From IMG/VR virus record IMGVR_UViG_3300044708_000152, positions 1 to 43,447 of that record: a DNA stretch of 43,447 bases; one strand, written 5' to 3'. The position numbers were made by a program, and so were the translations under genes. Below, piece by piece: positions 141 through 5,877 of the stretch. Position 1 is the first letter of the stretch. Each line of letters opens with the position of its first letter. The notes beneath the pieces were generated by a model. That model saw only the letters and a list, made by a program, of their open reading frames with translations. It did no database searches and had not been told where the DNA came from. The DNA is from a virus. Taxonomy: Duplodnaviria > Caudoviricetes.

Positions 141-151
141 GCACCAGGCCC

Positions 152-180
152 TTGCACCTTACGTATCAATTTGTTATATT
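152..180 (+). promoter_or_regulatory. Sigma70-type early promoter P1, containing operator O2 (164-176)
   Basis: -35 TTGCAC 152-157, 17-bp spacer, extended TG at 172-173, -10 TATATT 175-180; AT-rich island in a GC-rich genome. Confidence 0.8.
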
Positions 181-264
181 GTAGTTGTCGGGAGCGAGAG
201 ACCTCCCACACAGAACCAAACGGATCGCCCGCACGGCGATCAACACGAAAGAGAGTCACCAAAA

Positions 265-702
265 ATGAGAGCAGCACAGGCCGCACGCGCACAGCGCGAC
301 GCTCAGACCCGCATCGTGGATATCGTCAACGCGGGCGAGCAATTCCATAGCGCCTATGACCACATCTCGCGCCAGGCATTCGCGGCAATTCCGCCAACGC
401 TGCCGGGTTACGCCCGGGAATATCTCCGCGGTTATCTCAACGCGCGGCTCGATTTACTCTGGCGCAACACGGAATTCCGATATCAGCTCGCGGACGGTTC
501 ATGGGTCAACGCAACGGACCTTGAATACAACGGCACAGACCAAAGCTCCGGGCACTGGGTAGCAACGCACAATCCACCGGCTGCGCATTTCTGGAAAGGT
601 ACCGACCGTCCGTTCACTCACCCACAACCTATCAACAATACAACGCTCACACCAACGCCCGACTGCCTTACTCAGACTGTCGCCGACGCTTGGACCCACT
701 AG
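265..702 (+). CDS. Early hypothetical protein
   Basis: 145-aa ORF preceded by the conserved GAGAGTCACCAA motif (251-262). Confidence 0.75.
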   Translation: MRAAQAARAQRDAQTRIVDIVNAGEQFHSAYDHISRQAFAAIPPTLPGYAREYLRGYLNARLDLLWRNTEFRYQLADGSWVNATDLEYNGTDQSSGHWVATHNPPAAHFWKGTDRPFTHPQPINNTTLTPTPDCLTQTVADAWTH

Positions 703-722
703 AGACCACAGAGGAGTCACCA

Positions 723-992
723 ATGATCACCAAGCAGCAAGCCGTCATGGCTGACGAATTCCACTACACCGGAAATCACGAATGCTCGCGCACCGTAGGC
801 CCGCGCGGGGGAGTCACGGAAAAGATAGTGCGCGTGCGTCGCAACGGCGCAACGCAAACCTGGAAAACGCGCCCGGACGAATGGCGCCTCCCGGTCAAGT
901 ATGGAATGCGCGCACGCGACCAATTCTCAATCCACCATTACGAAGCGGCTAACTGGCATACCGCTAACGACTGCCCACTACAGACCACATAA
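723..992 (+). CDS. Early hypothetical protein (89 aa)
   Basis: ATG at 723 after GAGGAGTCACCA; stop immediately before hammerhead 1. Confidence 0.85.
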   Translation: MITKQQAVMADEFHYTGNHECSRTVGPRGGVTEKIVRVRRNGATQTWKTRPDEWRLPVKYGMRARDQFSIHHYEAANWHTANDCPLQTT

Positions 993-994
993 CA

Positions 995-1044
995 GGTCGA
1001 AACGTCGCGAGACGTCTAGGCGTTAGGCGCCTGCTGAAGAGACC
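995..1044 (+). ncRNA. Type II hammerhead ribozyme HH1 (predicted cleavage after C1016)
   Basis: GGUC-GAAA-CGUC(GCGA)GACG-UC-UAGGCG(UUAGG)CGCCUG-CUGAAGA-GACC: all three stems and the canonical CUGANGA/GAAA/GUC core are present. Confidence 0.92.
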
Positions 1045-1064
1045 AATTTAGGAGAGTCACAACG

Positions 1065-1388
1065 ATGCACACAGTTATTCGCGCGGACCTGCGCGCCAAT
1101 TGGGACAACGGCGACGCGTGGGGCTCCACAATGGGCGCCTGGTTTTCCATCGCCGACGTCCTTTACGTCACCGGCGAGGATATCCCCAACGACTGGGGAT
1201 ACCGCCAGCCCAACACGACAACGCGCGTACTGGCCAATATGTACGACGAAAACAACGGCGACTGGTTAGCCGCCGACCTGCGAGAGTCTTACTACACAAA
1301 CCTGGTTACCGCCGACGACTTGCGCCATGCTGGCAACGTCCTAAAGCGCCTCTCAGACATTCTCGAGGCCAACGACCGGAGCTACTGA
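1065..1388 (+). CDS. Early hypothetical protein (107 aa, acidic/aromatic)
   Basis: ATG after GGAGAGTCAC, downstream of HH1. Confidence 0.85.
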   Translation: MHTVIRADLRANWDNGDAWGSTMGAWFSIADVLYVTGEDIPNDWGYRQPNTTTRVLANMYDENNGDWLAADLRESYYTNLVTADDLRHAGNVLKRLSDILEANDRSY

Positions 1389-1389
1389 C

Positions 1390-1602
1390 ATGATCACCCT
1401 CGAATCCGGCGCGTTCGGATGGGACTACCTGCTAGTCAACGACAACGGCGAGTCCATCCTGATTCAGACCGACTATGACTACCCCGGCGTGGCGACAACG
1501 TTCGGCTGGGGCGGCTCCGAAGACGACATATCAGGAGCTGCTGCGTACCTTGACGACAACGTAGGCGCGAGCGTCGAAGACCCCGGCTACTTCAACGACT
1601 GA
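1390..1602 (+). CDS. Highly acidic 70-aa protein (DNA-mimic/anti-defence candidate)
   Basis: 14 D/E and no K/R/H; starts 1 nt after the upstream stop; stop adjacent to HH2. Confidence 0.8.
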   Translation: MITLESGAFGWDYLLVNDNGESILIQTDYDYPGVATTFGWGGSEDDISGAAAYLDDNVGASVEDPGYFND

Positions 1603-1604
1603 CA

Positions 1605-1654
1605 GGTCGAAACGTCGCGAGACGTCCAGGCGTAAGGCGCCTGCTGAAGAGACC
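1605..1654 (+). ncRNA. Type II hammerhead ribozyme HH2 (predicted cleavage after C1626)
   Basis: Same fold as HH1; stem I CAGGCG/CGCCUG; canonical CUGAAGA core. Confidence 0.92.
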
Positions 1655-1674
1655 ATTTGAGGAGAGTCACAACG

Positions 1675-2241
1675 ATGGAACCTGTTGAAACCACCGAACG
1701 CTACGGATATACCGCTCGCATCGAATATGACAACGATCCGGAGTCCCCGCGCGAATGGGACAACCTTGGCACCATCATCACATGGCACCGCCGCTACGCC
1801 TTCGGCGACCGCGACGGATACCGTGAAGGGATCGACCCTGGAGAACTCTACAACGAGCTGAAAAGCGAAGGCGCTCTCATTCTGCCGATCTACATGTACG
1901 AACATAGCGGGATCACCATCCGAACGTCAGACTTCGCTGATCCTTGGGATTCCGGCCAGGTCGGGTTTATCTATGTCGACCGTGCCAAGATCTTGGAGGA
2001 ATACAACGCCAAACGTGTAACAACATCCGTTCGCGAACGCGCGTTGGCGTGCTTGAAGGCCGAAGTGGAAGTACTGGACCAGTTTCTTACCGGCGACATC
2101 TACGGCTACATCATCGAAGACGCGGGGGGTGACCACATCGACTCATGCTGGGGCTACTACGGACTTACAACGGTCCGCGAAGAGTTAAACGCAGCGCTTG
2201 AAGCCCTGCCGCATACGCTCCCTTTGCCGGAACTTGCGTAA
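1675..2241 (+). CDS. Conserved-looking phage/MGE hypothetical protein (SPREWDNLG...WDSGQVG...DSCWGYYG), acidic
   Basis: ATG at 1675 after GGAGAGTCAC; motif pattern recalled from phage early proteins of unknown function. Confidence 0.85.
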   Translation: MEPVETTERYGYTARIEYDNDPESPREWDNLGTIITWHRRYAFGDRDGYREGIDPGELYNELKSEGALILPIYMYEHSGITIRTSDFADPWDSGQVGFIYVDRAKILEEYNAKRVTTSVRERALACLKAEVEVLDQFLTGDIYGYIIEDAGGDHIDSCWGYYGLTTVREELNAALEALPHTLPLPELA

Positions 2242-2244
2242 TCA

Positions 2245-2294
2245 GGTCGAAACGTCGCGAGACGTCCAGGCGTGATGCGCCTGCCGATAAGACC
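2245..2294 (+). ncRNA. Type II hammerhead HH3, variant core CCGAUAA (U4C, G8A; probably impaired)
   Basis: All stems intact; two core substitutions, including loss of the C3-G8 pair. Confidence 0.8.
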
Positions 2295-2318
2295 ACTTTT
2301 GGAGAGTCACAACCGATC

Positions 2319-2600
2319 ATGGAAACTATCCACCTTACACTAATGATCGATCCATCCGACGCCGGGGAATTCGACCCGTATCATCCAGCGCTCAGCCCCG
2401 CACAACGCGCGGCGCTCGTCCGCGCACGATTGTTCGCAATTCTCGAAGAGGAAAACGACGTCGAATTGGCAACACGCCTGACCATAGAGCACAACGGCCT
2501 GGCTGCACTTGCGCGCAACGCCGTACGCGAGTATCGCAACGATTACCACTCGCCCGCCTTGGAGGAGGCTATCGAGCGGCTCGCATCAGCGCTTGACTGA
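2319..2600 (+). CDS. Early hypothetical protein (93 aa)
   Basis: Lies between HH3 and HH4; GGAGAGTCAC RBS. Confidence 0.85.
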   Translation: METIHLTLMIDPSDAGEFDPYHPALSPAQRAALVRARLFAILEEENDVELATRLTIEHNGLAALARNAVREYRNDYHSPALEEAIERLASALD

Positions 2601-2602
2601 CA

Positions 2603-2652
2603 GGTCGAAACGTCGCGAGGCGTCCAGGCGTGATGCGCCTGCCGATGAGACC
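2603..2652 (+). ncRNA. Type II hammerhead HH4, core CCGAUGA (U4C variant; predicted cleavage after C2624)
   Basis: Stems intact; a U-G wobble replaces U-A in stem III. Confidence 0.85.
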
Positions 2653-2670
2653 AATTCTGGAGAGTCACCT

Positions 2671-3006
2671 ATGAAAACACTCGCGGACCTCAACGCCAAC
2701 GCCCACGAGTACCGCACCTTCGGCAACGAGGGCAGCGGCACCGGGCCATTCACTCTACGGACCTCGTGGGCCGTGGGCTCGCAATCACGACGATGGAACC
2801 GCTCCGGTAAAACGCATCTGCTGCGTATCTCAACCGTGCTCGCAACGCACCCGGATGGCGGCTGGAAACCGAACTACTACAAGGTCGGCCAGGTCTACTC
2901 CGCCGCCGCCATGTGCGACTCCAACGGCCAGCACACCGGGCATGTGTACCCCAACGTCGACACGGACGCAGTGGACTGCCAGCGTTGCCTGAAGGCACTC
3001 CAGTGA
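2671..3006 (+). CDS. Early hypothetical protein (111 aa, C-terminal Cys motif)
   Basis: ATG at 2671 after GGAGAGTCACC; contains C...CQRC. Confidence 0.8.
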   Translation: MKTLADLNANAHEYRTFGNEGSGTGPFTLRTSWAVGSQSRRWNRSGKTHLLRISTVLATHPDGGWKPNYYKVGQVYSAAAMCDSNGQHTGHVYPNVDTDAVDCQRCLKALQ

Positions 3007-3273
3007 TCTACTACGCCGAGTGTTTCGCGAAACCGTACGGTGGTGGCTGGGCCGTCGCCGAGACTCCAGAAGAGGCGCTCAAAGCGGGCCCGTCGCAACG
3101 TCGGCGAGACCGCCCGCCACGAACGCGGATCGTACGTGCTCGAGTTCCCCGACAACGCCAACGTGAGTTGCGGGAGCGAGCTGTACGGTGGGTATCGTGC
3201 CAACGTCCACCCGCTGCGCATCGTCTCGAAGCACAAAATCACCATGGACGACAACGCACTGCTGGGCCGGTAA
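3003..3273 (+). pseudogene. Small gene apparently interrupted by a +1 frameshift near 3081-3083
   Basis: GTGA-coupled start MIYYAECFAKPYGGGWAVAETPEEALK continues naturally as RARRNVGETARHE...LLGR* in another frame if one A is removed. Confidence 0.55.
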
Positions 3274-3288
3274 TTCTGGCCCTCGCCC

Positions 3289-3305
3289 TATCATTTTGAT
3301 ATACT
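3289..3305 (+). promoter_or_regulatory. Second early promoter P2 (extended -10 TGaTATACT) overlapped by operator O3 (TATCA-TTT-TGATA)
   Basis: TG at 3297-3298, -10 TATACT 3300-3305; similar to the P1 core; no good -35. Confidence 0.7.
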
Positions 3306-3335
3306 GAACGCACAACGAAAACAGGAGAGTCACCA

Positions 3336-3740
3336 ATGTCTACCGCCAACGCTCGCGCCATTCTTGACAACGTCGAACTGCCCACCGCCCGCTATCGCGC
3401 CATTCGGACCCGCTACGTCGGGCCAACGAACACCCGCGGCTCGCGCATCATCGCCGACGCCGGGGACCGCGCCTCGCGCGTCGTCGTCAGTTACGACCCA
3501 GCGCTCAACACCGACCAGAACCACGCGTACGCCGCCGTGCTGGTCACCCGCAAAATGGGCTGGGACGATCCCCAGTATTTCACCCCATTGGTTGGCGGTG
3601 GATACAACGCCGAATACTTCTGGGTTTTCCAGAACCGCCCGGAACCCTGGATCGTATGCGCCGCGTGCGGCCATAGCGGGCCGCACACTTCCGATAGTGG
3701 GTGCTCACTCTGCGACTGCACAGAGAAAGTGCCGGCATGA
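3336..3740 (+). CDS. Phage hypothetical protein (YVGPTNTRGSRI motif) with C-terminal Zn ribbon
   Basis: GGAGAGTCACCA RBS; CAACGH...CSLCDC. Confidence 0.85.
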   Translation: MSTANARAILDNVELPTARYRAIRTRYVGPTNTRGSRIIADAGDRASRVVVSYDPALNTDQNHAYAAVLVTRKMGWDDPQYFTPLVGGGYNAEYFWVFQNRPEPWIVCAACGHSGPHTSDSGCSLCDCTEKVPA

Positions 3741-5148: not shown

Positions 5149-5877
5149 ATGCACATCAAGACTACACTGGCCGCGCTCGCATTTGCGCTGGCCACCACTG
5201 CCAGCAGCACGCCTCAGGTGGCTGCCCAAAGCTACACCGCCACCACCACAACGGACCTGGCCACGGTCGCACCGTACCAGCACCTCAGCGACACGTCCAA
5301 CGCGGGCATGGACAGCATTCTGTTTATCTACCTGCGCCCGAACCTCGACAGATACTGGGGTCAAACCCTCGGCAACATGTACACCGCGCCCGGCTGGTCA
5401 TGGATCAATCGTAGCGGCGGCACCGCCACAGCATGCGGCAACATCACCCTCGAAAACGCGGCTAAGCAAGCCGCGTTCTACTGCCCACGCGACAAGGTGC
5501 TCTACTTCAACGCCGACTTTCTGCAGTACCAGGAGCGCCTGTTCGGCTTTCCTGGCATAGCTACCGTCATCGCCCACGAATACGGGCATCACATCCAGAA
5601 CCTCGAAGGCTGGGCGTCCGTCATGACAACTCAGCAGGAAGAGCTTCAAGCTGACCGCGACGCCGGGGCGTACCTGCGCTGGGCAGGCTGGACCTACACC
5701 ACCAACAACGGCGGCATAGCCAGTTGGTACACACTCAGCGACGTACAGGGCGTGGCCTGGGCCGCCGGCGATTACCTGTACTCCGATCCCGACCATCACG
5801 GCACGCCATCAGAGCGCTCTGAAGCGGTCACGCGCGGCTGGAACAACGGCCCCGGACTGAGCAGCGCCGCTATCTAG
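5149..5877 (+). CDS. Secreted neutral zinc metallopeptidase (YpfJ-like)
   Basis: Signal peptide; AFYCP, IAHEYGHHIQ, ELQAD and HGT motifs; GGAGG RBS. Confidence 0.88.
   Translation: MHIKTTLAALAFALATTASSTPQVAAQSYTATTTTDLATVAPYQHLSDTSNAGMDSILFIYLRPNLDRYWGQTLGNMYTAPGWSWINRSGGTATACGNITLENAAKQAAFYCPRDKVLYFNADFLQYQERLFGFPGIATVIAHEYGHHIQNLEGWASVMTTQQEELQADRDAGAYLRWAGWTYTTNNGGIASWYTLSDVQGVAWAAGDYLYSDPDHHGTPSERSEAVTRGWNNGPGLSSAAI

Follow-up and report, generated by a model that had tools for sequence, protein, structure and literature searches.

The left end of a phage genome of 43,447 nt (the whole stretch of DNA analysed, referred to below as the window) contains four near-identical repeats, each of which combines a type II hammerhead ribozyme motif with the SD sequence of the following gene. 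According to the explanation that we favour, to which we assign a probability of roughly 70%, these repeats likely self-cleave the early message into pieces carrying one or two genes, and likely serve in addition as joints for recombination. For the hammerheads of this phage, the role that we consider most likely is to process an early message that is polycistronic.

Genomic setting of the repeats

The window (64% G+C) represents a tailed, probably temperate phage. PHROGs matches were obtained for a terminase, a major head protein, a tail fibre, a primase-helicase and an integrase; the resemblance of the terminase is distant (26-40% identity in the 12 matches listed). The left end is composed of small genes on the + strand, preceded by a candidate promoter of the extended -10 type (172-180), and it is this layout that suggests the term early operon. 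The elements of the putative promoter (P1) are also present in L445, one of the relatives described below; P1 is absent from the output of a sigma70 consensus scanner for the window. The features of this block are the following:

152..180, + strand: candidate early promoter P1 (TTGCAC, 17 nt, extended -10 TGnTATATT, match at 172)
265..702, + strand: ORF1, 145 aa; a different gene lies in its place in relatives L445 and L448
723..992, + strand: ORF2, 89 aa
994..1044, + strand: hammerhead copy 1, canonical core, cut predicted after C1016, 63.1 bits; A994 and U1023 form the conserved predicted tertiary pair
1051..1060, + strand: shared SD block GGAGAGTCAC, a portion of the ~69-nt repeat; also at 1661, 2301, 2659 and 3324, with variants at about 250 and at 713
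1065..1602, + strand: ORF3 (1065-1388) and ORF4 (1390-1602), on a predicted 610-nt fragment
1604..1654, + strand: hammerhead copy 2, canonical core, cut predicted after C1626, 65.4 bits
1675..2241, + strand: ORF5, 188 aa, phrog_6186 (family of unknown function); cassette missing in relatives L445 and L451
2244..2294, + strand: hammerhead copy 3, U4C and G8A, C3.A8 mismatch, predicted cut site after 2266, 54.6 bits
2319..2600, + strand: ORF6, 93 aa; cutting at both copy 3 and copy 4 would place it on a 358-nt fragment
2602..2652, + strand: hammerhead copy 4, U4C, predicted cut site after 2624, 60.6 bits
2671..3006, + strand: ORF7, 111 aa
3297..3305, + strand: candidate second promoter closing the hammerhead block (extended -10 TGnTATACT)

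Searches of Pfam and PHROGs with ORFs 1-7 gave no informative match, ORF5 matching only families of unknown function. The descriptors detected no hammerhead at the 63 loci encoding ORF5 relatives (0/63), and a link between this family and the ribozyme was rejected on this basis.

All gene starts of the block that have an SD of their own use a GGAGAGTCAC-type motif, and some of the gene swaps in the relatives end there; the bare motif could also be the binding site of a translational regulator. A 16-nt direct repeat (15/16 identical) occurs at 695-710 and 974-989, i.e. where ORF1 and ORF2 each end, and ORF2 with its SD may therefore be a repeat-bounded insertion. The look-alike at 695-710 was rejected as a ribozyme, since it is the 16-nt repeat of the ORF2 end. 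The relatives of ORF1 end earlier than the ORF1 of the window.

Four copies of a type II hammerhead motif

When both strands of the window were scanned with a descriptor for type II hammerheads, exactly four matches were obtained (995-1044, 1605-1654, 2245-2294 and 2603-2652), at the same coordinates as those given in the initial annotation of this DNA, while the mean number of matches in 50 first-order Markov sequences was 0.0. Every copy has a 4-bp stem II, a 5-bp stem III with a GCGA loop, a GUC triplet and a 6-bp stem I with a 5-nt loop; loops cap stems I and III and stem II is open, which is the type II permutation. The gap between the preceding stop codon and the motif is 2, 2, 3 and 2 nt for copies 1-4, and GGAG begins 6 nt downstream of each motif, in agreement with the spacing noticed initially (2-3 nt past a stop codon and about 6 nt ahead of an RBS). 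The differences outside the core that had been described there, U-G versus C-G (at 1.1-2.1) and, in copy 4, U-G versus U-A (in stem III), were found again.

A repeat finder grouped the same four copies into one family that extends through the SD (a repeat of ~69 nt) and has 60-65 of 69 nt identical among the copies. When folded as isolated 50-mers, copies 1-3 adopt the hammerhead as their MFE structure, and copy 4 favours a different fold. A covariance model trained on 70 other viral copies assigned 54.6-65.4 bits to the window copies; no fifth or decayed copy was found in the window, where the next best match to the model scored 11 bits. A blastn search with one repeat against annotated phages gave no match.

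A widespread phage subtype lacking the pseudoknot

By their sequences, the four motifs are members of a widespread, pseudoknot-free subtype of phage hammerhead. The number of stretches in IMG/VR, as estimated from pattern scans, was 570 with the stem II of the window and about 1,900 with stem II left free, and 124 (stem II fixed) and 131 (stem II free) loci among the matches listed were analysed. Pairing was not required by the pattern, and stems I and III were nevertheless formed in 142 of the 150 raw matches listed, and all three stems in 135 of the 152 unique matches listed. In prokaryote genomes 72 of 127 raw matches were complete motifs, and the remaining 55, which are incomplete, look like chance occurrences. 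In an alignment of 70 copies (146 were eligible), two-sided changes were observed at 12 of 15 pairs, with a covariation score of 0.785 compared with 0.157 for shuffled and at most 0.108 for slid controls; the rows had been selected for pairing, which biases this score towards structure.

Among the matches listed, 270 of 286 motifs of the subtype have a 4-bp stem II and 260 of 286 a 17-nt stem-loop I. Two bases stand out. An A immediately 5' of stem II, which lay outside the search pattern, was present in 151 of 152 of the matches listed and, in prokaryote genomes, in 71/72 complete versus 17/55 incomplete matches. U1.7 was found in 164 of the 168 matches listed in which the pattern had left this position free. 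Both bases are present in all four window copies. A pseudoknot pairing loop I with the 3' tail was rejected as a feature of the subtype (37/260 among the matches listed, compared with 41.0 after shuffling); in the window copies these two segments can form only 3-5 pairs, G-U included. A trans-Hoogsteen contact between U(+7) and A has been reported for minimal hammerheads (PMC9217987). Since both bases match this contact and the pseudoknot is not enriched, we infer that the A-U1.7 contact stands in for the pseudoknot in the phage subtype. The position in the genome is also characteristic: of 241 motifs with flanks, 200 are preceded by a stop codon on the same strand and 183 are followed by an SD and an ORF (31 and 6, respectively, in opposite-strand controls).

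The initial annotation proposed an Infernal search with the Rfam hammerhead models, and this search recognised none of the four copies: no Rfam hammerhead family gave a match at E<=1 over the window, nor at E<=10 over positions 900-2750. The Hammerhead_II family (RF02276), which we take to be a pseudoknotted type II consensus, has the type II permutation and the core in common with the window copies. These lack the pseudoknot, did not reach its gathering threshold and received no score from it at any threshold tried. The silence of Rfam might be read as a sign that these repeats arose by chance or have no catalytic function, being e.g. protein-binding sites or terminators. Rfam 15, however, likewise misses the experimentally tested ribozyme of phage Bcep176, so that a common phage hammerhead subtype has no curated model and escapes detection. 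Moreover, the control sequences contained no match, the conserved core is accompanied by covarying stems, and a terminator scan gave none at the four sites. We therefore consider an explanation by chance or non-catalytic repeats very improbable.

The Bcep176 hammerhead (Burkholderia phage; DQ203855, 12165-12238) belongs to the subtype of the window (37 bits, E 4.7e-9 by the present model). It has an A before a 4-bp stem II, a 6-bp stem I and a 5-nt UNANG loop, and lies directly after a stop codon; it differs in being the single copy above threshold and in having a long stem III and an A6C core variant. It is listed among active ribozymes, with a kobs of <0.1 per min (PMC3088659). Two IMG/VR contigs (loci L155-L157 and L131-L134) contain larger arrays of the same subtype, with 9 and 6 pattern matches, and 2 U4C copies lie within the larger of the two.

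Variation of the catalytic core

The core consensus of PMC3088659 (C3 U4 G5 A6 N7 G8 A9, G12 A13 A14, A15.1-U16.1, H17) was used for comparison. Copies 1 and 2 (core CUGAAGA) agree with it at all positions and, with the stems of the family covarying, the identification of these elements as hammerheads in the initial annotation is correct. The two remaining copies depart from the consensus: copy 3 (CCGAUAA) by U4C at 2285 and G8A at 2289, the latter breaking the C3-G8 pair, and copy 4 (CCGAUGA) by U4C at 2643. Full IMG/VR scans yielded 40 structurally complete motifs with U4C out of 53 raw matches, all 40 of which retain the tertiary A and 2 of which belong to a relative of the window phage; there were no complete motifs with G8A (0/33 raw) or G5A (0/4 raw). 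It follows that U4C is tolerated specifically. This agrees with a viroid case cited in PMC3088659, in which U4C reduced activity in vitro yet was sufficient in vivo. When a type III hammerhead was subjected to a deep scan, however, the activity of mutants of the CUGA turn was low (PMC9901934).

The G8A change is the sole difference between the window and relative L450 over 1,017 nt, and relatives L445 and L451 also have G at this position. Being private to the window assembly, it would represent either a very recent mutation, i.e. a dead copy, or an assembly error; if it is real, copy 3 is likely inactive. Only two or three of the four copies probably cut well.

Probable gene exchange at the repeats

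The initial annotation also suggested a search of related phages for the same layout. Six relatives carrying the repeat were found, comprising one viral contig (L445) and five metagenome contigs (L447-L451). Their gene orders, in which H denotes the repeat, are:

Window: 1-2-H-3,4-H-5-H-6-H-7
L445: X-3,4-H-6-H-Y-H-7
L451: 1'-W-H-Z-3,4-H-6-H-7
L450: 3,4-H-5-H-6-(deleted H)-7
L447: 1-2-H-Z'-Z2-3
L448: X-W-H
L449: 3,4-H-5

Two whole genes are present in some of these sequences and absent from others, with both breakpoints within repeats in each case. ORF5 occurs in the window, L449 and L450 and is missing from L445 and L451, where the single repeat left is a chimera of the 5' part of copy 2 and the 3' part of copy 3 (these two copies have 31 identical nt in common). 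Gene Y occurs in L445 and is missing from the window, L450 and L451; copy 4 of the window matches L445 copy b in its 5' part and L445 copy c in its 3' part. The chimeric repeat left consists of the 5' flank and stem of one copy and the 3' tail and SD of the next. Further junctions are located at H or at a bare SD block (ORF2 versus W on the upstream side of copy 1, and Z following this copy), and about four or five junctions in the region, counted by eye, fall outside any repeat. In contigs assembled from short reads, the apparent loss of DNA between two repeats may reflect their collapse during assembly, though the ORF5-less form was found in 2 contigs and the form lacking gene Y in 3. At the gene level, breakpoints lie in intergenic DNA in any case.

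We propose that the exchangeable cassette would consist of the 3' half of a ribozyme, the SD, the gene, its stop codon and the 5' half of the next ribozyme. A crossover within the repeat, which offers recombination a perfect block of 20-31 nt, would carry the gene together with its SD and restore a full-length ribozyme. PHROGs comparisons of the 47 window ORFs revealed no recombinase other than the serine integrase, and host recombination is therefore assumed. A more tentative extension, which we regard as quite possible but less likely than not, is that the hammerhead-plus-SD repeat is the post-transcriptional equivalent of the PeSL cassette of T4 (see below): a crossover within it would restore a working ribozyme and turn the captured gene into a self-excising mRNA unit, whose cutting is tuned by the U4/C4 state. 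Exchange of cassettes, if true, would explain why arrays are uniform within a phage while the genes lying between the copies vary.

The lineage contains 16 copies of the repeat (6 with U4, 9 with C4 and 1 internally deleted), 14 of which were included in the alignment used to study variation. U4C is present in 9 of the 15 full-length copies, including all three of L445 and all three of L451, and the U4/C4 state follows the downstream gene, ORF5 always being associated with U4 and ORF6 with C4. The differences within the lineage are found in loop I, at N7, at positions 1.1-2.1 (compensatory U-A/C-G) and in loop III (GCGA/GUGA). In L450 (reverse strand, 1515-1553) the middle of copy 4 has been deleted at a short microhomology, and in L447 (reverse strand, ~960-989) a junction with the 3' half of a U4C ribozyme cuts gene Z short; L445 has no ribozyme ahead of ORF3. 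In view of these deleted, halved and missing copies, either cutting at a particular junction is dispensable or some of the contigs are misassembled.

It could be argued that the repeats are kept mainly as modules of DNA homology and SD for shuffling, and that ribozyme activity is weakening in this lineage. The prevalence of U4C, the tolerance of a deleted and a truncated copy, and the close identity of the copies would all fit such a scenario. Nevertheless, variation in the lineage is confined to positions at which hammerheads tolerate it and, of the three core changes checked, only U4C recurs in complete motifs, which makes the loss of a role for cleavage improbable in our opinion.

Probable processing of the early message

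In the model that we favour, which combines self-cleavage with recombination at the repeats, transcription would start at P1 and continue through the block, and each motif would fold with the aid of the single A-U1.7 tertiary pair in place of a pseudoknot. Self-cleavage would follow the GUC triplet, being efficient in copies 1 and 2 and slow or partial in the U4C copies, while copy 3 would scarcely cut if G8A is real. The predicted pieces are ~830 nt (with an assumed start at ~187) and 610 nt, followed by 640 and 358 nt, or by 998 nt with a dead copy 3. Each cut would leave a 2',3'-cyclic phosphate on the upstream product, whose last element would be a GNRA hairpin, while the downstream product would open with a 5'-OH and a fully paired hairpin ~35 nt before the SD; being joined by only 4 bp, the two should separate.

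Folding in the native context with ViennaRNA, a model outside which tertiary contacts lie, gave a stem II probability of <=0.09 in 19 of 20 folding windows. The median of the family is 0.05 (n=251), so this value is typical. For stem I of copy 4 the probability was 0.01-0.37, compared with a family median of 0.96, and competing folds were predicted. A look-up of public RNA runs listed none for positions 150-3400 of the window, a result that speaks neither for nor against cleavage.

The close approach of the upstream gene to stem II is compatible with control of cutting by translation, a ribosome stopping 2-3 nt upstream covering the 5' strand of this stem. Upstream stop codons lie at offsets of -7 to -2 from stem II in 177 of 200 motifs, and in copies 1, 2 and 4 GGUC can base-pair with the last part of the gene upstream. 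Such upstream competitors, however, are not enriched in the family (21/252, compared with 22.9 after shuffling), and an upstream anti-stem-II switch was rejected as a family trait on this basis; tight spacing is in any case expected in compact phage genomes. Gating by translation therefore seems to us a poor candidate.

RiboJ, which is sited in a 5' leader, was engineered from a satellite-RNA hammerhead of type III, whereas the T7 early mRNA is processed by RNase III, a host protein that leaves 5'-monophosphates. In both systems the message is cut ahead of an RBS, as proposed for the window ribozymes. The predicted change in the energy of opening the region from SD to AUG upon cleavage is -0.9, -0.4, -1.1 and +0.3 kcal/mol for copies 1-4, and release of the SD by cleavage was consequently rejected as a major effect, its predicted size being ~1 kcal/mol or less. 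Given these small predicted shifts, and the fact that cleavage by glmS can trigger decay, the RiboJ-like insulation proposed in the initial annotation is unsupported; the stabilisation by 5'-OH ends also put forward there is likewise hypothetical.

It is rather unlikely, but by no means negligible as a possibility, that cleavage shortens the life of the early message instead of insulating it, the cut ends admitting host nucleases and so providing timing or shut-off, with the slower U4C copies grading expression along the operon. The 3' product of such a cut would begin with a fully paired hairpin according to the predicted fold, which argues against rapid decay; a paired 5' hairpin would hinder the loading of a 5' exonuclease. 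The linkage of the U4/C4 state to the downstream gene is consistent with graded expression, but is equally expected from shared descent. Precedent is provided by the glmS ribozyme: far from being protected, its 3' fragment is broken down by RNase J1 (PMC10810187). In addition, a 2019 review (PMC6765202) describes the in vivo function of phage hammerheads as undefined and leaves open a choice between effects on stability and on translation. Shortening of the message is compatible with cleavage into one- or two-gene pieces and differs from it only in the outcome.

Comparison with known systems

Clusters of prophage hammerheads flanking single genes or blocks of genes were described by Perreault et al. 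in 2011 (PMC3088659), who proposed cutting into operon- or gene-length mRNAs and reported cleavage in vitro for three tandem arrays and in E. coli for one. The layout of the window is the same, with several ribozymes around single genes and short blocks in a genome encoding a terminase, a major head protein and an integrase. Neither this layout nor the role in splitting mRNA is therefore new. As in the 2011 study, type II hammerheads lie among varying genes and include core variants such as U4C. In contrast, the window copies are all nearly the same, extend over the SD and are traceable in six relatives, and the sections of that paper available to us make no mention of recombination between copies. 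What is added here is the presence or absence of two whole genes among relatives, the breakpoints inside the repeats and the chimeric ribozymes. No paper on hammerheads as recombination joints was found in the literature searched, outside which most subscription journals lie.

The closest parallel to the exchange of genes is found in the PeSL cassettes of T4-type phages, short repeated regulatory elements between non-essential genes, in which insertion, deletion and replacement occur via recombination between repeats (Arbiol et al. 2010, PMC2839356; also PMC4122927). The two gene indels with breakpoints inside repeats and the chimeric repeats described above work in the same manner. However, PeSL are transcriptional elements composed of a promoter and a terminator, whereas the window repeat is composed of a ribozyme and an SD and would act post-transcriptionally; no match to a sigma70-like promoter or a terminator was obtained at the window repeats, which are thus not PeSL by composition. 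Mini-circles have been demonstrated for PeSL (PMC2839356).

The lineage constitutes a natural test set, in which nearly identical canonical, U4C, G8A, deleted and truncated states of the ribozyme occupy matching junctions, and genes are present or absent between copies.

Other features of the region

One extra base at 3081, private to the window, shifts the frame of the gene that follows ORF7 (3003-3273) relative to L445 and L451, and may be either a genuine lesion or an assembly error. After the early block, positions 5149-5877 encode a putative neutral zinc metallopeptidase (PF04228) of 242 aa with a hydrophobic N-terminus. In L445, an inverted repeat (2983-3068 / 3199-3284), whose 86-bp arms match perfectly and are separated by a spacer of 130 bp, links the end of the small terminase gene to the start of the window. 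The window, L448 and L451 start within the right arm of this repeat, so the window (ends 1 and 43447) lacks ~300 bp; the region may be an invertible segment or an end used in packaging.
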